IMG/VR virus record: IMGVR_UViG_3300020469_000008
Coordinates: 32,001 to 96,000 of that record
Length of the DNA: 64,000 nucleotides
Direction: 5' to 3' (one strand)
Source: a virus
Taxonomy: Duplodnaviria > Caudoviricetes
Position numbers and translations under genes: made by a program. Below the pieces are notes generated by a model, which had not been told where the DNA came from, did no database searches, and saw nothing but the letters and a program-made list of their open reading frames with translations. Below are positions 2-33,994 of this stretch, one piece after another (position 1 is the first letter of the stretch; the number at the start of each line of letters is the position of its first letter).

Positions 2-196
2 ACAGATAATGTTGAGGTAACGATTAAACAAGTAGAAAACGCTTGCGCATTCGTCAATACTTGCTCTGACGAAATGTTAGTTAATTTTATGAATATGATT
101 ATGGAAACAAAGAACCTTCCTACAATTAGAAAATTTCACAAACTCTTAAGTAGTAAAGTTGTAGAAGCAGTTAATGCGGCAAACACAATAACTTAA
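2..196 (+). CDS. 3' end of a gene that starts upstream of the window (possibly a MoxR-type AAA+ partner of the next gene)
   Basis: Open frame 2 from the window edge, TDNVEVTIKQVENACAFVNTC...AANTIT*, TAA at 194-196. The MoxR guess comes only from adjacency to a vWA gene. Confidence 0.55.
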   Translation, partial: TDNVEVTIKQVENACAFVNTCSDEMLVNFMNMIMETKNLPTIRKFHKLLSSKVVEAVNAANTIT

Positions 197-9022: not shown

Positions 9023-9851
9023 TAAAAAAAGAAACGTAGGTATTATATACGAGCTTTTATTAAATCATATTAGTACAAAGCTTCTGGAAGGGAAGAAAAG
9101 AGAAGCAAAAACTGCAACTAAATTAATTGAAAAGCACTTTAAAAAAGGCACAGAGCTTTACAAAGAATTTAGGCTTTTTAACGCGCTTGCGAAATCAGAT
9201 ATAACACAAACACATGTTGTTGCATCAATATTAAATGAGGCAAAAATTGCTAGCAGAAATCTTAACGAAAGACAGTTAGAACGTGAAAAATCATCGCTAC
9301 TTAAAGACATAAACTATAAAATTAATGAGAAAGATTTCTATTATAGAAGTATTGACAATTATCGCGATCTAGGTTTAGTTCAACTGACACTCAATGAGTG
9401 GCGCAAAGATGATAGAGATATTAAGCGTCTAGTCGACTTCGAAACACGATTGGGTGCATTAATGTTAAAAGAGAAGAATAAAGTAAATGAGCAAAAGTAT
9501 GATGCGTCTCACAGTGACAGATTGGTTTTAAAGATCATGACTGAAAAATTTAATAAACGTTACGGTGAAGAACTAACCAGAGATCAACAAAAAATTATTG
9601 AAGGTTATGTTTTCTTATCTGATAAGGAACCTGACAATTTAAAAAAGTTTTTTGAAACCAAAAAAGAAGAAGCTTTGAACAGTTTAGAAAACTTTGAAGA
9701 TATATCTGATAATCGTTACTTGTTATCAAAATTGGACGAAGTTCGAAAGAAAATTAATAATTTACCCTCTAATGACATTAACGATGCAAATGTTGTTAAG
9801 TTTTTGACTCTTACAAAGATGATAAATGAAATTAAAAAGGAGATATCATAA
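9012..9851 (+). CDS. conserved head-module hypothetical protein (between portal and protease)
   Basis: 279 aa helical ORF starting MKHNKKRNVGIIYELL; overlaps the portal end; GAGGA RBS. Confidence 0.7.
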   Translation: MKHNKKRNVGIIYELLLNHISTKLLEGKKREAKTATKLIEKHFKKGTELYKEFRLFNALAKSDITQTHVVASILNEAKIASRNLNERQLEREKSSLLKDINYKINEKDFYYRSIDNYRDLGLVQLTLNEWRKDDRDIKRLVDFETRLGALMLKEKNKVNEQKYDASHSDRLVLKIMTEKFNKRYGEELTRDQQKIIEGYVFLSDKEPDNLKKFFETKKEEALNSLENFEDISDNRYLLSKLDEVRKKINNLPSNDINDANVVKFLTLTKMINEIKKEIS

Positions 9852-9852
9852 T

Positions 9853-10455
9853 ATGTCTGCAGAATTAAATGTTTTAAGAGAATGGACACCTATTTCTTGT
9901 TCAAAGGAAATGTTAAAGGAATCCCGCGAGCAATATGGAAAAATAATGTTGACGGGAATCATCCAAAAAGCAAACACCTTAAATCAAAATGGGCGAGTAT
10001 ATCCTAAGCCGATTCTAGAAAGAGAAATAATGAATTACCAAAAGATGATTCGTGAAAATAGAGCGCTGGGAGAATGCGATCATCCTGATTCGTCTGTAGT
10101 TGAATTAAAAAATGTATCACATATTGTGAGAGAAGCTTACATGCAAGGTGATGATGTCTATGGTAAGATAGAGATACTAGACACTCCTAGCGGTAAAATT
10201 ATACAGTCTTTAATTGAAAGTGGCATTACGCTTGGTATTTCATCACGTGGCGTAGGCTCAACTGTATCACAGGGTGGTAATCAGGTTGTACAAGACGATT
10301 TCCAGTTAATTTGTTTTGATATGGTGTCTGAACCGTCAACTCCCGGTGCATTTATGCTAAAGGAGCACAAAGTTTTAAGAAAAGATTTAGATAAAATTTT
10401 TAACCAAACAGATAAAATCGATAGAATGTTTAATGAGATTCTGAGGTGGGAATGA
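9853..10455 (+). CDS. prohead core protein protease (T4 gp21-like)
   Basis: GIIQKANTLNQNGRVYP, ALGECDHP, NVSHIV, LGISSRGVGS, FDMVSEPSTPGAF; start placed at ATG 9853 after GGAG. Confidence 0.93.
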   Translation: MSAELNVLREWTPISCSKEMLKESREQYGKIMLTGIIQKANTLNQNGRVYPKPILEREIMNYQKMIRENRALGECDHPDSSVVELKNVSHIVREAYMQGDDVYGKIEILDTPSGKIIQSLIESGITLGISSRGVGSTVSQGGNQVVQDDFQLICFDMVSEPSTPGAFMLKEHKVLRKDLDKIFNQTDKIDRMFNEILRWE

Positions 10456-13894: not shown

Positions 13895-15847
13895 ATGAGT
13901 AAGTCATTTACTTTGAATCAGTTGACTGAAGGTATCCGTGATCGTCACGTAGGCCAAGAAGCAACAAGAATTCAAGAAAAGTGGACCAGAACTGGTCTTC
14001 TTCGTGGTCTACAAAACCACGCTCGCGAAAACATGTCACGTTTACTTGAGAACCAAGCAGCTCAAGTACTTCGTGAAGCAAACACCTTAGGTGGCACATC
14101 TGGTGACGCTGGTCGTGTTGATGGATTTTCAAACATCGCATTCCCAATCGTTCGTCGTGTATTTGGTGGATTAGTTGCAAATGAATTGGTATCTATTCAG
14201 CCTATGTCTCTTCCAAGTGGACTCTTGTTCTACTTAGATTATACATACGGTTCTGATGTAGGTGGTGATGCAACTGCTTCAGGAAATGCATTGACAGCAA
14301 CTGGTGGATCAACTTATAATCAAGGTGATTCTATTTACAACAACCCAGGTGGAGCCGGTGTTCGTACTGGTTCTGACGCAACTGGTGGTCAATACGATCT
14401 AGTTGGTTCTGGTTACTCTAAAGTGCACGGTAATGTTGCATTTAGCGCAACTGGTAATGCTCTTAACGGTGCAATGGGTGGAGCTGCAAATCAATCTTTT
14501 ACAATTGCAGCAAATCTAACTACAAGTGGTGCTGATGGTAAACTACTTCATTTTGATCCACAACTTTCACGTGAAATCAGTGAAGGTACTAACAACTATC
14601 AAGTTCTTTTCCTCTCTGCTTCTCTCTTGCGCGAAGCTTCTGGAAGACAAAGAAGAGTTGATCCTACTTTGATTAAAGAAGTTGCTCTTTATTCTGAAAA
14701 CGGTACTAATGGACGAGGTCCCGGTAATTTAGTATCAGGACTGACTGTTCCTGGTAGTAACATTCAAGGTGGTAGCAACATTTGGAACGTTAGACGTCTT
14801 AATGAGCTAGGTACTTTGACACACAGTGCTGCTGGTACAACTTTCACTCCTGATCCTTTCGCATCAGTAAGTGCAACAGGAACTGTACTTAAGACAATCG
14901 TACAAGGTGCAGCTACTTCGATGGCAGCTGTCGATACAGGATTAAACTTGTCTGCTTCATTCCCAGTAGCTGATCAATTGTCTGAATCTGGAGACGCTGA
15001 TACTGGTTCTGTTGTGGTAATTCCATCATTCGAATCAAACTTTGCTTCTGAACCTACACCAGTAATTCCAGAAATTGATATCAAAATTGAGTCAATTGCT
15101 GTTACAGCTACAACTCGTAAGTTAAGAGCTCGTTGGTCACCAGAACTCGCACAAGATCTTAATGCTTATCACTCAATGGATGCTGAAGTTGAATTGACTC
15201 AAATCCTTTCTGAGCAAATCGCATTAGAAATTGATCGTGAAATTCTTAATGACCTTCTTGTTGAAGCGAAAGGTGCTAACTTCTTCTGGTCACGTGCTCC
15301 TGGTAAGTTCGTTAACAAGAGAAGTGGTGTTGCTGAAAACTTGGCGTCATCTCTTTCAACTGGACCACAATTTACTGGTACAGTTCGTGAGTGGTACGAA
15401 ACATTGGTTGAAACTATCATTGACGTTGCTAACGAAATCCATAGAAAGACTCTTCGTGGTTCTGCGAACTTTATCGTAGTTTCACCTGAAGTTGCTACTA
15501 TCTTCGAAGCTTCTGTATTGTACAAGCCAAGTGTTAAGATCGATGGTCAAGGTCAAGTTGCCTTAGGTAGCATTGGTGCTGAAGCTATTGGTTCTCTTTC
15601 TAACAGATTTACTGTTTACAAAGATCCTTACTTCCCACGCAACAAGATTCTTGTAGGATACAAAGGTGGTTCATATCTTGAGTCTGGATACGTCTATGCT
15701 CCATATGTACCGTTGATTGTAACTCCAACAATCTTCGCACCAGAAGACTTCACACCAAGAAAAGGTGTAATGACTCGTTACGGTAAGAAAATGGTTCGCG
15801 CCGACTTCTACGGAACAGTTACTTGCTTGGATATGGATATTATCTAA
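13895..15847 (+). CDS. major capsid protein (T4 gp23-like)
   Basis: AFPIVRRVFGGLVANELVSIQPMSLPSGLLFYLD, RKLRARWSPELAQDLNAYH, YAPYVPL, FTPRKGVMTRYG; followed by a strong terminator. Confidence 0.95.
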   Translation: MSKSFTLNQLTEGIRDRHVGQEATRIQEKWTRTGLLRGLQNHARENMSRLLENQAAQVLREANTLGGTSGDAGRVDGFSNIAFPIVRRVFGGLVANELVSIQPMSLPSGLLFYLDYTYGSDVGGDATASGNALTATGGSTYNQGDSIYNNPGGAGVRTGSDATGGQYDLVGSGYSKVHGNVAFSATGNALNGAMGGAANQSFTIAANLTTSGADGKLLHFDPQLSREISEGTNNYQVLFLSASLLREASGRQRRVDPTLIKEVALYSENGTNGRGPGNLVSGLTVPGSNIQGGSNIWNVRRLNELGTLTHSAAGTTFTPDPFASVSATGTVLKTIVQGAATSMAAVDTGLNLSASFPVADQLSESGDADTGSVVVIPSFESNFASEPTPVIPEIDIKIESIAVTATTRKLRARWSPELAQDLNAYHSMDAEVELTQILSEQIALEIDREILNDLLVEAKGANFFWSRAPGKFVNKRSGVAENLASSLSTGPQFTGTVREWYETLVETIIDVANEIHRKTLRGSANFIVVSPEVATIFEASVLYKPSVKIDGQGQVALGSIGAEAIGSLSNRFTVYKDPYFPRNKILVGYKGGSYLESGYVYAPYVPLIVTPTIFAPEDFTPRKGVMTRYGKKMVRADFYGTVTCLDMDII

Positions 15848-15952: not shown

Positions 15953-16270
15953 ATGATGAAAACCACAAGAAAGCAGCTACAAAAACTAATATTAGAGGCA
16001 ATGACAGGTATAGCATCGATGCCGTCAGCAGAAGGTGTTGATCAAATAGAAGAAAACCCAATTGTCAAAGATATTAATATTGAAATGATTGAGCAAATTT
16101 TAAATGAAGGCATGATAGCAATAGGTAATCAAGGTAATGACTACTATGCTGATACAAAAGCAATGATTGATAATGACAATACTATAATTCTTACTGCAGG
16201 ACCTCTAGATACACCATTTGCTGAAATAATAGTAAATTTTAAAGATTTAAGTCACATCACAAAAACTTAA
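15953..16270 (+). CDS. leader-bearing hypothetical protein (putative head internal protein)
   Basis: GAGG RBS; MMKTTRKQLQKLILEA; ATATTTA upstream. The track's longer start runs through the terminator. Confidence 0.7.
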   Translation: MMKTTRKQLQKLILEAMTGIASMPSAEGVDQIEENPIVKDINIEMIEQILNEGMIAIGNQGNDYYADTKAMIDNDNTIILTAGPLDTPFAEIIVNFKDLSHITKT

Positions 16271-18397: not shown

Positions 18398-18490
18398 TAT
18401 ATATAAGCAGGCCCGGCACACAGCATAAAGGCGACCCCACCGTCGTGTCGGAATCTTGTGGACAAGTATCTCAAAATTAAGGAGGAAATT

Positions 18491-19000
18491 ATGCCAAAGG
18501 TAACATATACAAATTCGAAAGGATTGTTTCAAGAAACAGGTACAGCGGACGTTAATCTGTCCGGACAAGGAGCATTGTTCGGTCAGCTTTTAAAAATCAA
18601 GACTGTCACAGCCACAACAGTGTTGCGCGATACAGACTCAGGAAAAATTGTTTTAGTTAATCCAGCTGGGACCACACTACTTACATTACCAAGCGTGGCA
18701 AATACAGGATGGACTATCACAATAATTCTTACAGAAGACGCAGCTGGATCTGATCAAGGTATGGGACAAAAAGTTAATATTGACTTAGGTTCAGGCGCTA
18801 ACCTAGCCAATATCGGACAAATACACGAAGTCGATGGGGCCGCCGGCGATTACGCAGTAGCCAATGATGACTTTATTAATTTCTCAGCTAATGCTTCACC
18901 TGGTGACAGAGTCGATATATTTTCAGACGGATCTAGATGGCACATTTACGGTCTAGTAAAGGATGCTACAGAGGCTGTATTCAACACAGCAGCTGGATAA
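18491..19000 (+). CDS. putative capsid decoration/structural protein, paralog 1
   Basis: AAGGAGG RBS; MPKVTYTNSKGLFQE; 169 aa, same length as and colinear with the next gene. Confidence 0.7.
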   Translation: MPKVTYTNSKGLFQETGTADVNLSGQGALFGQLLKIKTVTATTVLRDTDSGKIVLVNPAGTTLLTLPSVANTGWTITIILTEDAAGSDQGMGQKVNIDLGSGANLANIGQIHEVDGAAGDYAVANDDFINFSANASPGDRVDIFSDGSRWHIYGLVKDATEAVFNTAAG

Positions 19001-19012
19001 TAGGAGATTAAC

Positions 19013-19522
19013 ATGCCAAAAGTAACGTATACAAGTTCGAAAGGATTATTTCAAGAAAGCGGAACTGGTGAAGTAAATTTATCAGGTCAGGGTGTTTTGT
19101 TCGGTCAATTAGCAAAAACTGAAGCAATTACTGCTACTACAGCGTTGGCGTCAACTGATACCGGTAAAATATTTTTTGTCGATCCAACAGCAGCAACATT
19201 AATTACTCTACCTGCGCTAGCCTCTTCTTTAAAAGGTTGGTATTGTCGATTTGTGCTCACGGAGAATGAGACAGGAAACGCACAAGCAATGGATGCAAAA
19301 GTTAATATTGACTTGGGCGCTGGAACAGCAAACGTCGGTCAACTTCATGAACTAGACGGCGGGGCTGGAGATTATTTGGTCTCCGGAGACGATTTTGTAA
19401 CATTCTCTGCCAATGCATCAGCAGGAGACAGAGTTGATATCTTTACAGACGGTAATAGATATTATGTTTACGGTTTTGTCAAAGAAATTGCTGAATGTAA
19501 TTTTCATACCGCAGCTAGATAA
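19013..19522 (+). CDS. putative capsid decoration/structural protein, paralog 2
   Basis: MPKVTYTSSKGLFQE; shares KVNIDLG, GQxHExDG, DDFxxFSANASxGDRVDIFxDG with paralog 1. Confidence 0.7.
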   Translation: MPKVTYTSSKGLFQESGTGEVNLSGQGVLFGQLAKTEAITATTALASTDTGKIFFVDPTAATLITLPALASSLKGWYCRFVLTENETGNAQAMDAKVNIDLGAGTANVGQLHELDGGAGDYLVSGDDFVTFSANASAGDRVDIFTDGNRYYVYGFVKEIAECNFHTAAR

Positions 19523-20166: not shown

Positions 20167-20463
20167 ATGTCATCAATTAATAGAGATAAAATCAGAAAAT
20201 TAATTTTAAAAGAGTTTAAAATGATGGGAATGGCTGATATGGGCCACGGCGGGATGAAGCCAATGGGAATGGTGCACACTGTTGATCACGGCCATGAAGC
20301 TAGTCACGGTCATTCTGTGATGAAATCAGCTAAAAGTTGTGTATCGCGCGAAGATTGCTGTGCTGCAATTATGTGTTTGGTTGAATGTTGCGAATGCCCA
20401 ATCACAAAGCAAGTAATTATGGAATGCTGCCAAGAAATCATGTCTGGTCAACACGATCATTAA
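20167..20463 (+). CDS. leader-bearing Met/His/Cys-rich protein
   Basis: MSSINRDKIRKLILKE; His-rich linker; DCCAAIMCLVECCECP...ECCQE. Confidence 0.7.
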   Translation: MSSINRDKIRKLILKEFKMMGMADMGHGGMKPMGMVHTVDHGHEASHGHSVMKSAKSCVSREDCCAAIMCLVECCECPITKQVIMECCQEIMSGQHDH

Positions 20464-21839
20464 TGAAAATTACTCGACGCCAGCTCCAAATGTTAATACA
20501 GGAGGAGATACGACAGGTGAAACCGGGTTGTTATAAAGTATACCCGAAGAAACCAAAGCGTGGCAAGAAGCGTCGTAAAGCATTATCTAAAAAGTGCAAG
20601 ACTAAGAAAGCAGCAAAGAAGCATTTGGCAGCTATTGAAATTAGTAAATCGATGCGTGAGGATGACAATCCTTGTTGGGATGGTCACAGGCCAGGTGCTC
20701 AAACCGGACAAAAAACAAAAATCGGAAAGAGTGGAAATCGCGTTGCAAATTGTGAAAAGATAAAAGAATCAATTCTTTTAGAGTCCAAATATGAACAACT
20801 CATATCACAATTACCTGGGTTGTCGTTAGTTGTTACTGAAGATATGCCGCGCGGGTTTGCATTAGATTTGCAATACGATGATTACATGATCGCATCTGCA
20901 GAGATAGTAGCTCTTTCTGTAAACCCAGGTGAACCATGTATTCCTGAGACAATGTCAGTTAGTACTATTTATACCTCGCCAGATTATCAGAATTTAGGGA
21001 TTGGTGAACTTTTACTTGATCTGATATTCTACTATGCTAGCACGTTAGACGGAGGAAAAGGACGAGGTATAACAACAGATTTGCGAGGTGGTAACACACC
21101 AATTATTAATTACATAATTCAAAGAGCATTACAAGATCCTGCATACTACAAGCAGACCACCAAAGCCGGTAATGACGAGATGGACTTTTTTGAAAAAACT
21201 AGCGACCCGGATGATGATTGCTACTCCGAATTCCTTGACGGTAAAGGTATATACTGGTTTATTAGTCAAGGTATGTCCGAAGAAGAAGCATTCGAAAAAG
21301 TTGAAATGACAGATGGAGATTTAGGCACGACTAGCTCTTGGCGAAAGAGAGGTATTGAATCTATAAAGCCTATATATGACATGCTCACACAAAGACAGGG
21401 TGCTGATGTACTTTATAGACCAGTCATTAGAAGTCGACAGTTCCAAGATGCTTATCGTAATACACCTACTCCTGAAGAAATACGTTCATTTCAAAGAGGT
21501 AAGAAACTAAAAGAACGCAAAGAACCAAGAAAAGGCACCGGTAAAAAACCAAAAGGTAGTACTAGGCGATTATATACCGATGAGAATCCCAAGGATACTG
21601 TCTCTGTTAAGTTTCGAACTAAGTCTGATATACAGGACACTTTATCAAAAAAAAGCTTTAAGAGTAAAGAACATAAGCGGCAGTCGCAGATAATTAATCT
21701 CATACATCAGCGCGTTCGTGTTGCTTACAAAAATGCAAAAGATCCTGCAACGAAAAAACGCTTAAAGCTTGCGTATGATTATGCTAAACAGAGAAAAGAA
21801 GCCAGTAAGCTTAAAACAAAAAAAATGAGGAAGAAATGA
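20463..21839 (+). CDS. leader-bearing multi-module protein with a GNAT-like domain
   Basis: TAATG coupling at 20463; MKITRRQLQMLIQEE; GNAT motif A-like IYTSPDYQNLGIGELLLDLIF; basic modules on both sides. Confidence 0.65.
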   Translation: MKITRRQLQMLIQEEIRQVKPGCYKVYPKKPKRGKKRRKALSKKCKTKKAAKKHLAAIEISKSMREDDNPCWDGHRPGAQTGQKTKIGKSGNRVANCEKIKESILLESKYEQLISQLPGLSLVVTEDMPRGFALDLQYDDYMIASAEIVALSVNPGEPCIPETMSVSTIYTSPDYQNLGIGELLLDLIFYYASTLDGGKGRGITTDLRGGNTPIINYIIQRALQDPAYYKQTTKAGNDEMDFFEKTSDPDDDCYSEFLDGKGIYWFISQGMSEEEAFEKVEMTDGDLGTTSSWRKRGIESIKPIYDMLTQRQGADVLYRPVIRSRQFQDAYRNTPTPEEIRSFQRGKKLKERKEPRKGTGKKPKGSTRRLYTDENPKDTVSVKFRTKSDIQDTLSKKSFKSKEHKRQSQIINLIHQRVRVAYKNAKDPATKKRLKLAYDYAKQRKEASKLKTKKMRKK

Positions 21840-22351: not shown

Positions 22352-23152
22352 ATGAAAGTTACACGACGTAAACTTAAAATGATTATTGAGTCTTTCCTTC
22401 ATGAAGAAAAGGAAAAACTTGAGAAAGATCACGGCAAAAAATATGTTTGCCCAAGCTGTGGTCATGTTCATGATTCTAAAGAAGATATTAATGCCCTCTG
22501 GTCAGGAAAAAAGTGTGTAAAGTGCGGTACAAAATTTGACCTAAAGACCGGTAAAGTTCCATCAGGTAAAGGCAAGGGGCAAAAGTGGGGAATTCATGCT
22601 AATACTAAAAGTGAGTCAAAATTAAGAATGCTTCGCGAAAAAAGACATCGTAGAAAAAGAAAACTAAGAGAAACTGCGAAAGAAACTGAATGTCCTACAG
22701 CGACAACAGACATTAGTGTTAACACAGCTAATCGCGACCGAGCTCGCAAACTTGACTGGATTATATACGGCCCTTTAAATGTAGAATTTCCGGGAAAGTA
22801 TTGGGAAAAGATATCAAAAAAGTGGGGAACAGACGTTGAAGCAGCAAAGAAGTCAAACTGTGGTGTTTGTGTTGCTTTTGATCGATCCCCGAAGATGGTT
22901 GATGAGTGCATACCTGCAATAACGTCTGAACCTGTTGCAGATGAGTTCGGTGTTTTAGGGTATTGCTGGATGCACCACTTTAAGTGTCACAGTGCAAGAA
23001 CATGTAACACTTGGGCAGCTGGTGGTCCGATTAAGACTGATGAAGCGTCAGGCGAATGGTTTGAACGTAATAAAGACGGTGCGTTAAAGAAAGATCCAAT
23101 CGATCCTAATATTTATAGGGACGATACTAATACTTCACAGGAGACAGAATGA
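22352..23152 (+). CDS. leader-bearing Cys-rich (zinc-binding) protein
   Basis: MKVTRRKLKMIIES; CPSC...CVKC ribbon; second domain CPTAT...YGP...NCGVCVAFD...GYCWMHHFKCHSARTC. Confidence 0.7.
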   Translation: MKVTRRKLKMIIESFLHEEKEKLEKDHGKKYVCPSCGHVHDSKEDINALWSGKKCVKCGTKFDLKTGKVPSGKGKGQKWGIHANTKSESKLRMLREKRHRRKRKLRETAKETECPTATTDISVNTANRDRARKLDWIIYGPLNVEFPGKYWEKISKKWGTDVEAAKKSNCGVCVAFDRSPKMVDECIPAITSEPVADEFGVLGYCWMHHFKCHSARTCNTWAAGGPIKTDEASGEWFERNKDGALKKDPIDPNIYRDDTNTSQETE

Positions 23153-24237
23153 AAATATCAAGAAGAAGAATTAGACAACTTATAAGAGAATCCCGCGAAG
23201 AACATATCCAGGGAATTAGAAGTAAACTAGTTAGATTAAATGACGAATTAGAAAACAGACAAGAGGCACTTGATGATTTAAACTATCAATCACAAAGTAT
23301 GATGGATTTTTATTCAGATGACCCATATGCTGGTAGAGATGAGATGATGGCCGGTGACCCGATTAGAGATCAAATATATGACATCGAAAACAAGATAACA
23401 TTGTTGCAAAATCAACTAGATGCTTTAGAAGCTGCTAATGGTGGCCCGGTAGGTCAACTACCAAGGGGTAGAATATTCGAAGAAGTTTCTGATCTGACTG
23501 ATGAAAAACAAAAAGAAATAGATGACGCAGTTGCTGATTATTTAGCCAAAGAAGGCGGAGCAGCATCTGAAGAGGGAACCGAAGATATTGTTCGTGACAA
23601 GGTTGATGGCATTGATGCAAAATCGTATCTTTCAAACAATGAAAGATTTAAGCAGCTAACAGTAAATAACGACCCAATGGACTATTATGATACAACTTTA
23701 ACTGAAGCTAGAGTCTTTATTAGAGAGAAATTAGAAAAAATTGGTTTTTACAAGAAGTACGGTTACGGATTAGATGATATACCAAACAAAACAAAAGCGC
23801 ATGACGATATCATAGGGCACACGTGACTGACCCACGTTAAGCGGAAGGATTCTGCTTTAAATGAAGTTGGTGAAGTTTTATGGCACAGCCTTGATGAAAG
23901 TGGTCACATATCTGTTTATGACGTCGAATGGTCAGACGGTACAATTGAAAGAGATATCCCAGCAATTTTATTAGAAAAAGTTAAAGATAGTAATGCTGTC
24001 GACGAGGTTCACGAGGCACACGGTGTAGACGGACATAGACTAGATTCTGCTATCGATGAGAGAAAGTACAAGAAAAAGAAAAAAACAAAGAAACGTAAAA
24101 AGAAAAAGCATAGTTTGTACCCATATGTGTTTGGGTTTGGCTATCACCACGATGCTGAAAATTATGATTATGATATCGGTGGTGATTATGGAGATTTTGG
24201 AGGCGGCTTCGGTGACGGAGGCGGTGGTGGAGAATGA
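23149..24237 (+). CDS. leader-bearing protein with in-frame TGA at 23824-23826; candidate selenoprotein (362 codons if read through)
   Basis: After the TGA the same frame stays open for 136 codons (LTHVKRKDSALNEVGEVLWHSLDESGHISVYDVEWSDGTIERDIP...GGGGGE) and ends in an ATGA overlap with ORF 24234; hairpin directly after the TGA. Confidence 0.65.
23837..23860 (+). promoter_or_regulatory. bacterial SECIS-like hairpin
   Basis: TTAAGCGGAA-GGA-TTCTGC(T)TTAA: 10 pairs, one bulged U, G-first apical loop; starts 10 nt after the in-frame UGA, loop 20 nt from the UGA. Confidence 0.55.
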
Positions 24238-24743: not shown

Positions 24744-25895
24744 GTGGCTATATTTGCGAACACAATATCCCCAACACCATTTGGCATATACGATAATGAG
24801 AACGATTTTCAGACTGATGCTAACAATATGGTCACATTTGTTAAGAGAAAACTAGGTGATGATGTTTTATCAGTTGAGCTAACAAAGAAGCAGATATGGG
24901 GTAACTTTGAGGAAGCAACACTAGAATATAGTGCAATTTTAAATCAGTACCAAGCAAAATCCCAGCTAGTCAATTTTTTAGGATTTGCCACTGGCAGTAT
25001 TATGAGTGGCAGCGAAGAAAAATATATTCGTGAAAACTTAGAATTTTTAAATCGATTCGCTGAACCCTATGCGATGGAAGCAGGTATCGGGGGCTCCTAT
25101 AACTCCTTATCCGGATCGATTCAACTTGAAGTTGGTCGTCAAGATTATAATCTATATACAGAGTTAAGTGGTGCAAACGGCGGTCTTTTTGATAATACAA
25201 AAGGGAAACTAAAGATTGATGAAGTTTTCCATTACAACCCCCAGGCAGCTTATAGATTTTTTGATACGACATCAGCGATAAACTATTTAAATAATGAGTT
25301 TAGTTTTGAATCATTTACACCTGAGACTGTTTTTTATATTTTGCCTGTCTATGAAGACTTGTTAAGAGGCGGCCAACTGGACCTTTCAAATCGTGTAAGG
25401 CGATCTAATTTTTCATACAAAATTATGGGTACAAATTTTAGAGTATTTCCGATACCTACGAGTGGAAAAAAACTATTCTTTAGAATAAGACAATATCCAG
25501 ACCCAACACAACCTTCTTACCGTGATGATACAATTCATGGCGTTTCAAACATGAATAATCTACCTTTTGGTAATGTGCAATACAACCGTATCAACAGTAT
25601 AGGTCGACAGTGGATCAGAAGTTACACTCTAGCTATTTCAATGGAACAACTAGGTTATATTAGGGGTAAGTTTGGAAGTATTCCTGTGCCTAATTCTGAT
25701 GTTACTTTAAATAGTTCTGACTTAATTAGTAACGGTAGAACAGATCGCGATGCGCTCAAAGAAAAGTTGAGAGAATTATTAGATTCTATGACTTACGACA
25801 AATTGATGGAGATACAATCGACAAGAGCTGAGCAGATTCAAAAACAATTAAAATATGTACCGGTACCAAACGGTAAAGCAATCTTTCTAGGATAA
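24744..25895 (+). CDS. neck/head-completion protein (T4 gp13-like)
   Basis: GTG start after GAGG; RKLGDDVLSVELTKKQI...EEA; first gene of the neck-tail cluster. Confidence 0.6.
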   Translation: MAIFANTISPTPFGIYDNENDFQTDANNMVTFVKRKLGDDVLSVELTKKQIWGNFEEATLEYSAILNQYQAKSQLVNFLGFATGSIMSGSEEKYIRENLEFLNRFAEPYAMEAGIGGSYNSLSGSIQLEVGRQDYNLYTELSGANGGLFDNTKGKLKIDEVFHYNPQAAYRFFDTTSAINYLNNEFSFESFTPETVFYILPVYEDLLRGGQLDLSNRVRRSNFSYKIMGTNFRVFPIPTSGKKLFFRIRQYPDPTQPSYRDDTIHGVSNMNNLPFGNVQYNRINSIGRQWIRSYTLAISMEQLGYIRGKFGSIPVPNSDVTLNSSDLISNGRTDRDALKEKLRELLDSMTYDKLMEIQSTRAEQIQKQLKYVPVPNGKAIFLG

Positions 25896-27828: not shown

Positions 27829-30800
27829 ATGGCAGAGCAAACATTTAGATCTCCGGGTTTTTTCGAACGTGAGATTGATTTAACTCAGAGAACAGTAGAA
27901 ATCGAAGGTGTACCTGCAGGGATTATTGGGACTGCCGCCCAAGGTCCAGCATTTGTTCCTGTCACACTAGGATCATTTGTTGATTTTGAAAGGAAATTCG
28001 GTTCACTTGATAAAGATAAGTTTGGACCGTACGCGGTAAGAGAATGGTTAAAAAATAGGACAGCTGTCACTTACATCAGAGTTTTAGGTGCTGGTGCTGC
28101 AAATTCAACAGGCGATATTAACAATACGCTTACAAAAGGAATTGTGAAGAATGCTGGTTTTTTAATAAAAGGTACAAAGGTCAATTCAAGAGACGGAACA
28201 GACGCGCGTCACGAGGGCAGTATACAATTTATTGTTGCTTCTCACGATGTTAACGAAAACGAAGTTGCGGGTTATCCTTTATTCACTGATAGTGATTCTT
28301 TTGATACATCAACATCAATAAGAATAGTAAGAGGTATGCTTTTCACAGCAACCGGATCCAGATTTCAAGTTTTGGATCACGACAAATTCTACAGCGCTGT
28401 AAACGCATCTGATGATTTAGCAAAAATTAAACAATACGCAGGTGTTACAACTGACGGTACTTTTAAACTGGTTTTGTCAAGTGCTATTGGTGCTAATTTT
28501 GGTAATGACGAAGGAAATGCAGGAATCAGAATATATACAGCCTCATTAAATCCTACTAGTAATCATTACGTTGGTAAGTTTTTAAATAAAAATCCAGATA
28601 AGTTTGGATCACAGCAACATTTGTTTTATGCAGACTTTGCTGTAGAAGATGAGCTAGCACGTGTTACATACAATGCGTCAAAAGGAACAGTGGGTATTGT
28701 ATCCGGGTCTGCACGAACAAGCGGAAATAGTGGCGATTCGGCCTTGAGCTTTAGAGACGCTTTTGGTAGATTTGATACGCGATACAAAACAGCAAGAACT
28801 ACATCATTTATTTCGCAGCCTTACGGCCTTAGAGAATATGACTTGTTTCATTTTGAATCACTTGATGATGGTGCTGTAGGTAACAAAAGAGTCAAAATAT
28901 CAATTTCAAACATTAAAAGATCTACCAATAAAAGGACAGACTTCGGGTCGTTTACAGTTTTAGTTAGAGATTATAATGATACTGACACAGACATGCGAAT
29001 ACTTGAGCAGTTTCCTCTTTGCACATTAAATCCGAAAGACGAGAACTATGTAGCAAACAAAATTGGTGACATGAAAGTTTTCTACAATTTTGACGCAGAG
29101 ACTGAATCTGAAAGAAGACTTAACGTCGAAGGTAAAAGACCTAACCGGTCTCAGTATGTAAGAATTGTGATGCACAAAGATGTTGAAGAGTTTTTGATTC
29201 CTGAAAACACATTACCTTTTGGCTTTAGAGGTATGCCACTATTAAAAACAAATGATAGTTTGACAGATAGTGACAGCGCACTAGCGGGAGGCTCTAGAAC
29301 AGTTGGTGGTCGTCATAGACTTTCACTATTAACCGGTTCTTCAGGTGTCGCAGGTGAAGACTTAGTACAGTCTATCTTACCACCCGTACCATTTAGATTT
29401 AAAACTACAAGAGGTGCTGTGGCGAGAGCTACAAATCCAGGATTTACCGGTCAACCCGGAGCACTTGAACTTAGCGATAACAGATACTTCTGGGGTGTTA
29501 AGCTCGAAAAATTAGCGCTCACAGGTACTGTTGGTGACGCAATATTACAGTCTAATGCTTCATCAACAAAGAATCCACTTGTAGAAAGTTATAGTAAATT
29601 TTTAGGAATATCAAAGTTAGATACACTACTCACCGGATCAGCCGCTGATGTGTTTAACAATAATAAATTTAGTTTGTCAAAAGTAGCATTATTTAATCAG
29701 ATTGCAACAACATCGACAATTGAAGCTTCTATAGCAAGCGCAATAACAGGTTCAGCAAATGATCATATGAAAGAAGCAGCATACTTAAGAAATGGTGTTA
29801 ATGAAACAAAGAACTATACTATACTCGATGACAATGGAAGTATTCAAAGGGTGACATTTGCAACTCTTGCAGCATCAAGAAACGCTAAATATTTTAATCG
29901 ATTTATAGATTATGCTAAATTTACTAACATAATGTATGGTGGTTTTGACGGTCTAAATATTTTAGATTCTGACAACCGCTTAATGAATGACAGGGCATCA
30001 TCAGTTGACGCTCAAGGGAAAGCAAATAAAAGTAATGGTACATTTACGCACGAAAATCTAAACGCAGTGTCAAGTCCTGGAACTGGAAAAGATAATAACA
30101 TAGTTAATTCATATAGAACTGCAGCAAGAATCATTACTGATCCTTTTGCGTCAAGAGTTAATATTGTGTCAATACCTGGCATTAGAGAACCTTTTGTTAC
30201 AGACTTTGTGTCAGATCTTACACGTGATTATAGTAAAGCGATTTATTTGATGGAATTACCTTCTTATGACGATAATAGTAATCGAATTTACGGTACACAA
30301 AGACCAAGCGTTCGCGAAACTGTTGAAGTTTTTGATGCACGTGCAATTGATAATAGCTATGTAGCGACATACTTTCCAGATGTGGCGTTTAACGATGAAG
30401 TAAACAGACAAATTGTTGATCTGCCGGCTTCGATCGCTGCTTTAAAAGCATTAGGGTATAACGATACTATCGCTTATCCTTGGTTTGCACCTGCAGGATT
30501 TAACAGGGGTGCTTTAGGTAATGTTGTGAATACAAAAGTTAGACTAAATGCAGAAGACAGGAACATTCTTTACGAATCAAGAATTAATCCAATTGCAAAC
30601 TTTCCTAACGGCGGGTTTGTTATTTTTGGTCAAAAGACACTGCAACAAGATAGATCAGCACTGGATAGAGTTAACGTAAGAAGAATGTTACTTGAAGTGA
30701 AAAGAATCGTATCAAACATCGCAAACAACTTAATTTTTGAACAAAACACACCGCAAACTCGTGCAAGATTTGTTGCAGAAGTAACACCACAACTCGCAAC

Positions 30801-30978
30801 AATACAAATTCAGCAAGGTATCGACCAATTTAAAGTTGTTATGGATAGTAGCAACAACACTGATTTAGATATCGAACAGAATAGATTAAATGGTAGAATT
30901 GTTTTAGTTCCGACACGAGCTGTAGAATTTATTGCAATTGATTTCATTATTACGAATTCAGGTGTAAGTTTCGAATAA
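27829..30978 (+). CDS. tail sheath protein 1 (T4 gp18-like)
   Basis: SPGFFEREIDLT, GPAFVP, PWFAPAGFNRG, FGQKTLQ, LDRVNVRRML, EFIAIDF. Confidence 0.92.
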   Translation: MAEQTFRSPGFFEREIDLTQRTVEIEGVPAGIIGTAAQGPAFVPVTLGSFVDFERKFGSLDKDKFGPYAVREWLKNRTAVTYIRVLGAGAANSTGDINNTLTKGIVKNAGFLIKGTKVNSRDGTDARHEGSIQFIVASHDVNENEVAGYPLFTDSDSFDTSTSIRIVRGMLFTATGSRFQVLDHDKFYSAVNASDDLAKIKQYAGVTTDGTFKLVLSSAIGANFGNDEGNAGIRIYTASLNPTSNHYVGKFLNKNPDKFGSQQHLFYADFAVEDELARVTYNASKGTVGIVSGSARTSGNSGDSALSFRDAFGRFDTRYKTARTTSFISQPYGLREYDLFHFESLDDGAVGNKRVKISISNIKRSTNKRTDFGSFTVLVRDYNDTDTDMRILEQFPLCTLNPKDENYVANKIGDMKVFYNFDAETESERRLNVEGKRPNRSQYVRIVMHKDVEEFLIPENTLPFGFRGMPLLKTNDSLTDSDSALAGGSRTVGGRHRLSLLTGSSGVAGEDLVQSILPPVPFRFKTTRGAVARATNPGFTGQPGALELSDNRYFWGVKLEKLALTGTVGDAILQSNASSTKNPLVESYSKFLGISKLDTLLTGSAADVFNNNKFSLSKVALFNQIATTSTIEASIASAITGSANDHMKEAAYLRNGVNETKNYTILDDNGSIQRVTFATLAASRNAKYFNRFIDYAKFTNIMYGGFDGLNILDSDNRLMNDRASSVDAQGKANKSNGTFTHENLNAVSSPGTGKDNNIVNSYRTAARIITDPFASRVNIVSIPGIREPFVTDFVSDLTRDYSKAIYLMELPSYDDNSNRIYGTQRPSVRETVEVFDARAIDNSYVATYFPDVAFNDEVNRQIVDLPASIAALKALGYNDTIAYPWFAPAGFNRGALGNVVNTKVRLNAEDRNILYESRINPIANFPNGGFVIFGQKTLQQDRSALDRVNVRRMLLEVKRIVSNIANNLIFEQNTPQTRARFVAEVTPQLATIQIQQGIDQFKVVMDSSNNTDLDIEQNRLNGRIVLVPTRAVEFIAIDFIITNSGVSFE

Positions 30979-31000: not shown

Positions 31001-33994
31001 ATGGCAGAAATAACATTTAAGTCAGCAGGAGTAAAAACTAGAGAAATTGACTTGTCACAACCGTCAAGGTTAGGACCGGTCGGTATTCCTGCAGGTATTA
31101 TTGGAACCGCACTTGAAGGTCCCGCTTTTGTACCACTTACTTTTGCAAATTATAATGATTTCATTACCACATATGGTGCTTCTGATGGTGAAAAATTTGG
31201 ACCTATAGCTGTAAGTCAGTGGCTTAAAAATGCACAAGCTGTGACATACATGAGAGTATTAGGATCCGGTGATGGGAAACAAAGAAATACAAACGGTACT
31301 GTTACAAACGCTGGATTTACAGTTGGAAATAGAATTGTTCAAGAAAGTGGCATAATAGGCGACAATGCACATGCAAAATCTGGTGTTGGTGCTGTTGAAG
31401 GTAGAACTTATTTTCTTGGTTGCTTTATGTCTGAGTCTAATGGCTCGACAATATTTAGTGACGCAGGAATTCAAGTTTCTGGGCAAAATAAAGCAGCACC
31501 TATTTTAAGAGGCGTTCTATTAGCACCAAGTGGTGTAGTTTTACATTTAAGTGCGTCAAGGACTCTAAACGGAAGCCAGGCACCACTTAAAACAAACACT
31601 GCCACATCTGCAGATAATGTAATAGTGGGTAGAGAAGGATCGATTACCGGTTCCTTGAATCTTGCAACGCAAGAGTTTGTTTTATTAATGAACGGATACA
31701 GTAATTCTGATGTTAGCAAAAAGACACATATAACAGCGTCATTTGATATGACATCACCAAATTACTTTGCAAATATTTTAAATACAAATCCTTTTAAAAT
31801 TGAAGAAGAAGGCCACTTACTGTATGGTCATTATGACATATATCCTGATTTAGCATCTGTTACTGGTAGCGGTGCACTAGCTGGAGGTGTTTATTCTAAT
31901 CCAGAAAAAACAAAAGAAGATATTGCATTGTTGTTAACATCATCTTTAGCTAGGAACGTAGGATCATCGACTATACCTAATTACGAAGACTTTGTAGATA
32001 GATTTTCTCACGCTGCATCGCCTTTTGTTATATCACAAAATTTTGCAGGAACTCCTAAAAATCTATTTAGAATTCATATGTTGTCTGCAGGTTCTGGTGT
32101 CGCAAATAAATTTAAGTTTTCAATTGAGAATATAAGAAAATCATCATCAACAAAAAATCTTTACGGTACTTTCGATCTACTTGTCAGGAGTTTTAGTGAT
32201 ACTGACGAAGAGCCAAGAGTAATCGAATCGTTCAGAGGCTTAAGTTTAGATCCAACTTCAGATCGATATATTGCAAGAGTTATTGGTGATCAAAACATAC
32301 AATACAATTTTGATGTTGCTGAAACAAGTCAAAAACTAATTGTTGAAGGTAATCACCCAGTTAGATCTAGGTTTATTCGGGTTGCGATTGCTAATGACGT
32401 TTCAACAGGTATTGAAGAAGCTACCGCTTTACCTATGGGTTTTAGAGGCCCTAATCACTTAGTAACAAGTGGTTCTTTACTTTCTAATGAAGTTGACAAT
32501 GCTTATGTCACGTCAACATCAGTACAATCTATAACCGAACCACCAATACCTTATAGAAAGACAGTTTCAGTAGGTACAGGTATACAGAAAAAATCAGACA
32601 GTCGATTATTTTGGGGAGTTAATACTGTAAGACAAACAAGTGCAACTCAACCAAACTTAGCTAGTTTGTTCAATAGATCTTTTAACACGTATTCAAAACA
32701 TTTTCCTACGCATAGAACTGATCAACCTAATTTTTCTGTCGGTAATAACCCAGGCACAGCTGATGCTGGAGGGGCCATTCTAGATTGTGACAGATTTAAT
32801 AATAATAAGTTTAGTTTAGAAAATATTCTTGTTCGAACAGGATCTGATGGTTTAGCTGATCCGGAACATTGGCTTAGCGCTTCATTTCTAAGAAGAAACA
32901 GTACTGTTGGTGACATTAATCACGTCACAAAAGTAAGAGGTTTTTCTGTTGACGATTTAGGTAAAGTAGCTAATATTAAGTTTGCTAAATTTACTTTCTT
33001 TGCACAAGGTGGTTCTGACGGTGTTAATATTTTCGATGAAGAAAAAAGCAAATTGTCAAACACAGCTGTTAAAAGAGAAATGGATGATTCATCATCATCA
33101 GGTGTAAATGACAATACAGTTGCTGCATATAGAAAAGCATTAAGTGTAATGAACTCCAAAGCTGACGTTGATATACAGGTACTCGCAGTACCGGGTATTA
33201 GACATGCATCAGTAACAGATTTTGCAATACAAAAAACTGAAGATCGTTTTGATGCAATCTACATTATGGACATTGAAGAGAGAGATCAAGTTAATACTGT
33301 TATAACTTCGTCTATACAAAAACCACATGTTTCAAACACAGTGACATCTTTTAAAAATAGAGCACTTGATACTTCATTTGCAGCTGCATACTTTCCAGAT
33401 GTTGTTGTGACTGATCCTTCTACACAAACATTAGTTCAAGTTCCACCATCAGTTGCAGTCTTAGGCGCTTACTCTTTAAACGATAGAGTTGCTCATCCTT
33501 GGTTTGCACCAGCTGGATTTACAAGAGGCGCGTTAAACACAGTTGAAATGCCTTCTGTAAAGTTAAATCGCACAAACCTTGATGATTTGTATGAAGCTGA
33601 TATAAATCCAATTGCAGAATTCCCAGGTGTTGGTATCACTATCTGGGGACAAAAAACACTGCAAGCTGACAATTCTGCACTAGATAGAATCAATGTTAGA
33701 AGACTTTTAATTGATGTTCGTAGAAAAATTAGAAATATTGCAAATTCACTTCTATTTGAACCTAATAGAGAAGAGACACTTGAGAGGTTTACGTCATTAG
33801 TTAACCCAATTCTACAAAGAATTCAAGAACAAAGTGGTGTTGATAGATTCAAGGCAGTGATTGACACATCAACGACAACACAGGCTGATGTAGAAAATAA
33901 CACTATTCGTGGTAAGATATTCTTACAACCTACACGTTCCGTTGAGTTTGTAGCACTAGATTTTGTAGTAACAAATGCTGGTTCAAATATTTAG
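31001..33994 (+). CDS. tail sheath protein 2 (T4 gp18-like)
   Basis: SAGVKTREIDLS, GPAFVP, PWFAPAGFTRG, WGQKTLQ, LDRINVRRLL, EFVALDF. Confidence 0.92.
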   Translation: MAEITFKSAGVKTREIDLSQPSRLGPVGIPAGIIGTALEGPAFVPLTFANYNDFITTYGASDGEKFGPIAVSQWLKNAQAVTYMRVLGSGDGKQRNTNGTVTNAGFTVGNRIVQESGIIGDNAHAKSGVGAVEGRTYFLGCFMSESNGSTIFSDAGIQVSGQNKAAPILRGVLLAPSGVVLHLSASRTLNGSQAPLKTNTATSADNVIVGREGSITGSLNLATQEFVLLMNGYSNSDVSKKTHITASFDMTSPNYFANILNTNPFKIEEEGHLLYGHYDIYPDLASVTGSGALAGGVYSNPEKTKEDIALLLTSSLARNVGSSTIPNYEDFVDRFSHAASPFVISQNFAGTPKNLFRIHMLSAGSGVANKFKFSIENIRKSSSTKNLYGTFDLLVRSFSDTDEEPRVIESFRGLSLDPTSDRYIARVIGDQNIQYNFDVAETSQKLIVEGNHPVRSRFIRVAIANDVSTGIEEATALPMGFRGPNHLVTSGSLLSNEVDNAYVTSTSVQSITEPPIPYRKTVSVGTGIQKKSDSRLFWGVNTVRQTSATQPNLASLFNRSFNTYSKHFPTHRTDQPNFSVGNNPGTADAGGAILDCDRFNNNKFSLENILVRTGSDGLADPEHWLSASFLRRNSTVGDINHVTKVRGFSVDDLGKVANIKFAKFTFFAQGGSDGVNIFDEEKSKLSNTAVKREMDDSSSSGVNDNTVAAYRKALSVMNSKADVDIQVLAVPGIRHASVTDFAIQKTEDRFDAIYIMDIEERDQVNTVITSSIQKPHVSNTVTSFKNRALDTSFAAAYFPDVVVTDPSTQTLVQVPPSVAVLGAYSLNDRVAHPWFAPAGFTRGALNTVEMPSVKLNRTNLDDLYEADINPIAEFPGVGITIWGQKTLQADNSALDRINVRRLLIDVRRKIRNIANSLLFEPNREETLERFTSLVNPILQRIQEQSGVDRFKAVIDTSTTTQADVENNTIRGKIFLQPTRSVEFVALDFVVTNAGSNI

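Follow-up and report, generated by a model that had tools for sequence, protein, structure and literature searches.

A leader-tagged modular protein with a GNAT-fold domain: a candidate head-cargo pro-protein of a distant T4-like phage

Why should a gene that joins an acetyltransferase-like domain to strongly basic segments sit among the head genes of a T4-like phage? The question is raised by one open reading frame (ORF), 20463–21839, in a 64,000-nucleotide stretch of viral DNA, hereafter the window (positions 32,001 to 96,000 of IMG/VR record IMGVR_UViG_3300020469_000008). We conclude that the gene probably specifies a head-cargo pro-protein, which would be loaded into the capsid and cut, in a marine giant phage that is distantly T4-like. 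Our analysis supports the sharing of its leader with other proteins, the autonomy of its modules, the conservation of their junctions, the presence of a protease, and the GNAT fold with its coenzyme A (CoA)-loop motif. Packaging, cleavage, catalysis, ejection, and a target of the GNAT pro-protein are what we infer from the sequence. As proposed, the pro-protein extends the known T4 internal-protein and capsid-targeting system, and no new principle is involved.

The shared leader and the separable modules

The internal proteins of T4, and Alt as well, carry a capsid-targeting sequence of 10–20 residues that is removed by gp21 (PMC9026906, PMC5694885). The protein encoded by ORF 20463–21839 begins with a 14-residue leader of comparable design, ending in (L/I)-x-E and common to unrelated proteins. 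A pattern search for M-K-I-[ST]-R-R-x-L-R-x-L-I-x-E finds the leader, which the initial annotation had already pointed out, on at least nine ORFs in the window (starts at 15956, 16617, 20167, 20463, 21836, 22352, 23149, 24234, and 55473) and on 22 ORFs in the 202-kb genome. The bodies behind it have no detectable mutual relation. Every leader in the genome ends in [LI][IL]xE, and the next residue is S, A, M, F, or E. Leader-tagged ORFs are most densely clustered between the capsid and neck genes. A second dense cluster is located at genome ~147–157 kb, outside the window.

The start codon at 20463 overlaps the upstream stop codon (TAATG), and the stop codon of the ORF overlaps the next start (ATGA). 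The relatives favour this start rather than the in-frame ATG at 20385: the complete leader (MKITRRQLQ or MRITRRQLQ) opens eight of them, and a further two have Cys at position 6. The longer start is rejected, as it would create a 78-nt overlap with the upstream gene and receives no support from the relatives. The public gene call for the same sequence (P0002) begins at Met10 and loses most of the leader, indicating that automated annotation would miss the leader family.

The genome encodes a single Peptidase_S77 protease of the gp21 type (Table 1), the presumed processing enzyme for the cargo pro-protein. The gp23 homologue contains V-L-R-E|A at residues 58–61/62, and the protease contains M-L-K-E near both of its own ends.

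Behind the leader, the protein is divisible into four modules, A to D. A homologue search through 5.8 billion proteins left 1764 hits among the scored candidates, and the module borders were derived from the alignment end points of ~270 metagenomic relatives, independently of any named cleavage site. Local alignments on the query form four sharp-edged blocks (residues 1–66, 68–100, 100–350, and ~350–458). The split named by the initial annotation is the same, and the strings it quoted are all present: YKVYPKK...AAKKHLAAIEISK at residues 24–62, PCWDGH...RVANC at residues 70–97, IYTSPDYQNLGIGELLL at residues 169–185, and RRLYTDENPKDTVSVKF at residues 368–384.

The modules occur in many combinations. 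Orthologues with 64–77% identity have the order leader-A-B-C-D, and module B is missing in the orthologues P0006, P0008, and P0013 (leader-A-C-D). Leader-C alone is found in P0024–P0034, leader-A alone in P0252, leader-A-D in P0227, and leader-A-B-D in P0223–P0225. Module A also precedes other cargo (P0037, P0127) or lies mid-protein, following C and a leader-like stretch and preceding D (P0018, P0020). Module B stands between the leader and an unrelated body in P0265 and P0270, and beside unrelated sequence in P0249 as well. In P0026, leader-C-LKE is followed by a complete second leader (MKITRRQLKQIIKEE) and another cargo; this arrangement has the look of two adjacent cargo genes that fused naturally. 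Other enzymes replace C between A and D or before D, namely LysM plus GH24 lysozyme (P0037, P0042), an amidase (P0062), and an ordinary GNAT (P0091). In related phages the same gp23–gp13 slot holds A-LysM-GH24-D or the permuted C-A-D.

Within the genome of the window, each of the modules A to D is single-copy. None of them has a match in PHROGs or NCBIfam. A tblastn search of 50,697 phage records finds module D only, in Pelagibacter phage HTVC033P, and A, B, and C in no cultured phage.

Module D is very widespread. It is ~100 residues long (GTGKKPKGS-RRLYTDENPKDTV...; 21516–21836 in the window and also L001:6001–6291), accounts for the majority of the 1764 hits, and has ~76% mean identity across otherwise unrelated proteins. 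It makes up a protein by itself in P0110 and in the podophage HTVC033P, where it is gp40 (96 residues). It has no match in Pfam or PDB either; a profile search of PDB sequences gives chance-level hits only (designed helical proteins, E 3.6), and a literature search on its string YTDENP returned nothing. From its composition, our guess is that module D binds nucleic acid. DUF5771 of giant viruses, proposed for module D by the ESM Atlas with a score of 0.88, was dropped as it is not recovered in a Pfam scan at E <= 10. At least two further N-terminal types, MKLILENWNKFLNE and MKIKIKxx, are seen on proteins that contain module D. Such varied N-termini on the same cargo, together with the different leader of distant GNAT-fold relatives described below, suggest lineage-specific targeting tags.

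The metagenomic, leader-tagged protein P0039 has the order leader-HAD-like domain-A-B-D (its A module is A-like), and its DxDxT motif, FDFDDT, is typical of HAD phosphatases. The HAD-like domain may be another enzyme class carried as cargo.

The GNAT-fold domain

Module C was modelled with AlphaFold2 using 90 sequences. The model has a predicted local distance difference test score (pLDDT) of 89.9 and a predicted template modelling score (pTM) of 0.88, and supersedes a first model built with 28 sequences (pLDDT 65.7). It is composed of a short helix, four antiparallel strands, the Q176-x-x-G179-x-G181 loop, a long helix, the strand G-I-T-T, a helix, the strand Y-Y-K, a 58-residue insertion, the strand T-T-S-S-W-R-K, and three helices. 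Acetyl-CoA enzymes bind pyrophosphate with the loop that joins strand 4 to helix 3. In module C this loop carries GNAT motif A, Q176-N-L-G179-I-G181; Q176 is invariant in 28 close relatives and G179 is retained in >=90% of the 90 relatives, in line with the Q/RxxGxG loop named by the initial annotation. C158 and D206, the latter positioned right after the strand G-I-T-T, are also invariant.

The initial annotation had called the core GNAT-like and had proposed fold prediction with Foldseek as the check. Among the top 50 PDB structures, Foldseek and an exhaustive structural alignment each return members of the GNAT superfamily only (Foldseek E from 2e-4; structural alignment Z from 8.7, with a root mean square deviation of 3.9–5.1 over 132–133 residues, down to 6.9). 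The matched structures include the GNAT domain of M. tuberculosis ICL2/Rv1916, AtaT, NatD, Elp3, Naa80, and minimal GNATs; Foldseek also matches SpeG, a spermidine acetyltransferase. Searches of the ESM Atlas and BFVD agree on GNAT; in the ESM Atlas the top cluster consists of viral proteins, 22% of which carry Acetyltransf_1. Identity to solved GNATs is 4–15% in the VIA-align list and up to 20% in Foldseek local alignments. A profile search of PDB sequences with module C gives chance-level hits only (Rab-23, E 0.5).

Profile searches point in the same direction. Pfam places Acetyltransf_1 and Acetyltransf_7 on residues 136–195 of the query, both sub-threshold, and an acetyltransferase match at E <= 0.1 is found in 10 of the 28 close relatives (best 7.5e-5). 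The distant relatives P0127 (23.7 bits), P0128 (21.6), and P0132 (26.9) score above the Pfam Acetyltransf_1 cut-off. A profile search of 1.84 billion representatives recovers 101 clusters, mostly phage-like proteins of ~230 residues with another leader (L-I-M-E-G-W-R-K-F-L-K-E). Z values of 8–9 alone are middling; taken together with the uniform list of matches, the motif, and the Pfam passes, they make the GNAT fold predicted for module C (residues ~110–300), with an intact acetyl-CoA loop motif, secure. The distant GNAT-fold relatives P0128, P0130, P0132, P0148, and P0162 begin with a different common leader, MxxKLIMEGWRKFLKE.

Module C shares the core sheet, the Q-x-x-G-x-G loop, and the strand 5–helix 4 arrangement with the GNAT superfamily, including the minimal members YjdJ (5i0c) and At1g77540 (1xmt). 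It differs from them in the 58-residue acidic insertion before the last strand and in the three C-terminal helices. D241, D251, and C253 of the insertion are invariant, and D248 and D252 are nearly so. In the model, the insertion occupies the position that usually shapes the acceptor site of GNATs, which hints at a basic substrate.

AtaT and TacT are tRNA-acetylating GNAT toxins. The toxin GNATs AtaT (Z 8.4), 7byy (Z 7.8), and TacT3 (Z 7.6) score level with a wide range of other acetyltransferases. No antitoxin-like neighbour is found among the flanking genes in Pfam or PHROGs; the flanking genes are leader-tagged cargo.

Junctions, proposed processing and its alternatives

Glu is the residue after which the proteases of T4, phiKZ, and SPN3US all cleave, and redundant sites next to one another are on record (PMC9026906, PMC5694885). 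The query has tripeptides of this type at residues 12–14 (I-Q-E), 64–66 (M-R-E), 100–102 (I-K-E), 105–107 (L-L-E), and 349–351 (L-K-E). Consistent with the claim of the initial annotation that the boundaries match gp21-type cut sites, SMRE (63–66), KIKE (99–102), ILLE (104–107), and KLKE (348–351) coincide with the module borders; SMRE is not a canonical site, and the best match to the end of the leader itself is ILLE|S rather than KIKE.

The junction tripeptide [L/I/M]-x-E is retained whichever module adjoins. At the end of A, [LIM]-x-E is present in 33 of 37 distinct contexts; at the end of B, I-x-E stands at a fixed distance past N-C in 37 of 40. At the start of D, the tripeptide is positioned exactly five or six residues before GTGKKPKGS in 33% and 29% of 80 distinct contexts (62% in all), against a rate of ~1% at offsets 12–27; when the unrelated upstream sequences are clustered, 25 of 48 clusters show this placement. 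The modules thus are autonomous segments bounded by protease-type candidate sites. In addition, the N-terminus of P0110, MSDPKKGTGKK, is in register with the predicted mature start (G/S/A-D-P-K-K) of the common form of module D. Stand-alone C relatives read leader-LIKE|S-ILLE|S/T, with the leader directly before C.

In the processing that we propose, the gp21-type serine protease would cut after Glu at [L/I/M]-x-E, removing the leader after E14 and separating the pieces after E66, E102 and/or E107, and E351. Masses and isoelectric points (pI) of the predicted products are listed in Table 1. The basic pieces would probably remain with the packaged DNA, and the GNAT enzyme would probably be expelled with the DNA at infection and then acylate a target.

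Several observations count against this proposal. The number of [LI]xE sites in the protein is not enriched (6 versus 4.0 +/- 1.8 in shuffled sequences), and two of them, IPE at 160 and IGE at 180, lie within the folded core and would have to escape cutting. Therefore, the case is one of placement and conservation, not of counts. Even so placed, the conserved tripeptides could be mere structural ends of modules. SMRE has Met at P3, outside the classical T4 preference for Leu or Ile at this position, reportedly described by Black, Showe and Steven in 1994. A Peptidase_S77 search of the HTVC033P genome is negative, and the same search is positive in the genome of the window. Module D, which is leaderless in that podovirus, thus does not need a T4-type protease. 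As for the enzyme, the query (P0001) scores 17.8–19.3 bits with Acetyltransf_1, below the cut-off of 20.7. Like minimal GNATs, module C lacks the helices that usually stand between strands 1 and 2, and neither a Tyr nor a Glu that could play the classical catalytic part was identified as invariant.

The main rival is a one-piece protein. According to this explanation only the leader is removed, the mature multi-domain internal protein stays whole, its basic arms A, B, and D tether the GNAT domain to the packaged DNA, and the junction tripeptides are relics of module assembly. T4 proteins retained in the mature head indeed lose terminal propeptides only (PMC9026906), the charges of the basic arms and the acidic core balance, and the two sites within the fold need protection in any case. 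However, dozens of unrelated contexts, spread over three types of junction, retain the tripeptide, whole-leader copies stand at internal junctions (P0018, P0026), and each module also exists as a separate leader-tagged gene. We therefore regard the one-piece protein as unlikely. A released enzyme, for its part, need not act on the host. Two Lys-rich modules flank it, the conserved acidic patch of its insertion (D241, D248, D251, and D252) would suit basic substrates, and SpeG is among its structural matches, so that the GNAT might act in the particle or on phage components, for example by acetylating polyamines or the lysines of the basic modules packaged with it, and tune DNA condensation or release. 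In relatives, lysozyme or amidase stands between A and D where the GNAT does here, which speaks for a middle slot filled by independent cargo and not by a partner of those modules, and leader-C genes exist without A and D; we judge an enzyme acting in the particle improbable.

A third alternative is that the leader does not target the capsid and the protein works in the cytoplasm of the infected cell, for example in anti-defence or take-over, with the N-terminus serving localisation, regulation, or recombination. It is true that the leader is not known to resemble the T4 capsid-targeting sequence, and that leader-tagged genes are also found beyond the head block, for example at genome 100–157 kb. 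Given the dense cluster between the capsid and neck genes, the protease-type motif at the end of every leader, and the presence of both a T4-type protease and a cleavage site in the capsid protein, we consider a cytoplasmic role very improbable, and keep to the head-cargo pro-protein.

This pro-protein resembles the T4 proteins IPI–IPIII and Alt in its short N-terminal propeptide, which is common to unrelated proteins and ends in hydrophobic-x-Glu, in the gp21-family protease encoded nearby, and in a cargo gene set that varies among related phages. It differs from them in that its leader sequence is unrelated and several modules are joined in one ORF with internal sites. Alt, like the proposed product of module C, is an enzyme carried as head cargo; Alt has an ADP-ribosyltransferase fold, whereas module C has a predicted GNAT fold. 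The comparison with Alt is a functional analogy only. In phiKZ, 201phi2-1, and SPN3US, many head proteins are likewise cut after Glu by a gp21 homologue at multiple redundant sites, and ejection proteins are found inside the capsid (PMC5694885, PMC9026906). However, their proteases prefer a small residue at P3 (A/S/G-x-E), their propeptides are long, and no reshuffled small modules in beads-on-a-string order are described in these two papers.

Tentatively, the observations may be read together in a broader way, which we consider less likely than not. Marine T4-like giant phages would encode combinatorial pro-proteins, in which A, B, D, and swappable enzymes are joined in any order by protease-site joints; the GNAT would be injected as an effector, its acidic insertion being a new substrate-binding element, and module D an undescribed abundant virion protein acting on DNA or on a conserved host target. 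Gene fusion and fission would then cost nothing, as the protease regenerates the same products. If the pieces are released in the capsid, the T4 capsid-targeting and gp21 logic would be extended in ocean phages to the modular delivery of several enzyme classes. The pro-protein would also exemplify T4-type head cargo that includes a GNAT-fold enzyme; no paper came up in a full-text literature search combining GNAT, ejection protein, bacteriophage, and virion. Moreover, it would offer a way into the function of module D, a marine viral sequence that is very common, is strongly conserved, and has no family, structure, or paper, and would account for the failure of gene callers and domain databases on these genes (start at Met10; no Pfam or PHROG match).

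Genomic setting and neighbouring genes

The source record comprises 202 kb with 36.6% G+C and an estimated completeness of ~70%. ORF 20463–21839 is positioned in the head-gene block, between the gp23 and gp13 genes, and the gp13-type neck gene is the downstream edge of the variable cargo slot. The closest cultured capsid proteins (Microcystis phage Mel-JY01, Flavobacterium phage immuto, and Rhodothermus RM378) are 34–45% identical to that of the window, indicating that the phage is a distant, uncultured T4-like myovirus.

Table 1 Features of the cargo pro-protein and of the head genes in the window, with the products predicted from the proposed cleavage.
Feature	Position	Strand	Residues	Predicted product	pI	Remarks
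Cargo pro-protein ORF	20463–21839	+	458 aa
Leader	20463–20504	+	1–14	1.8 kDa		MKITRRQLQMLIQE; ends I-Q-E; capsid-targeting-type propeptide
Module A	20505–20660	+	15–66 (52 aa)	6.1 kDa	10.7	21 Lys/Arg; ends M-R-E
Module B	20661–20768	+	67–102	3.9 kDa	8.8	two bounding Cys (PCWDGH...NC); ends EKIKE
SILLE	20769–20783	+	103–107			second tandem site, I-L-L-E|S
Module C	20784–21515	+	108–351	~28 kDa	4.5	GNAT-fold domain, putative acyltransferase; ends K-L-K-E
GNAT motif A	20988–21005	+	176–181			Q176-N-L-G179-I-G181; strand 4–helix 3 loop in model
Module D	21516–21839 (including stop)	+	352–458 (107 aa)	12.6 kDa	10.7	37 Lys/Arg; RKEPRKGTGKKPKGS-RRLYTDENPKDTV...
Portal, gp20/T4-type	in window					Pfam Portal_T4, E 4e-74
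Prohead protease, T4 gp21 type	9826–10455	+				Pfam Peptidase_S77, E 4.7e-28; phrog_207
Major capsid protein, gp23 family	13895–15847	+				Pfam Gp23, E 3.3e-77
Neck protein, gp13 type	24744–25895	+				phrog_211; counterparts in related loci with PF26809 Phage_T4_gp13

Immediately upstream of the cargo ORF, the leader-tagged ORF 20167–20463 encodes a His/Met/Cys-rich protein of 98 residues with no family match. Further upstream, two adjacent paralogues (18458–19000, 180 aa; 19013–19522, 169 aa) both start with ...MPKVTYT.SKGLFQE.GT and have no family match; the pair is found again in the related loci L004 and L005.

On the downstream side, the leader-tagged gene 23149–23826 has the C-terminus ...DDIIGHT at its TGA, and the body of P0026 has the same ending. 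The next listed ORF begins at 24234. Beyond the neck gene, a tandem pair of sheath-like proteins (27829–30978, 1049 aa; 31001–33994, 997 aa) has Phage_sheath_1C in each member and is kept in related loci.

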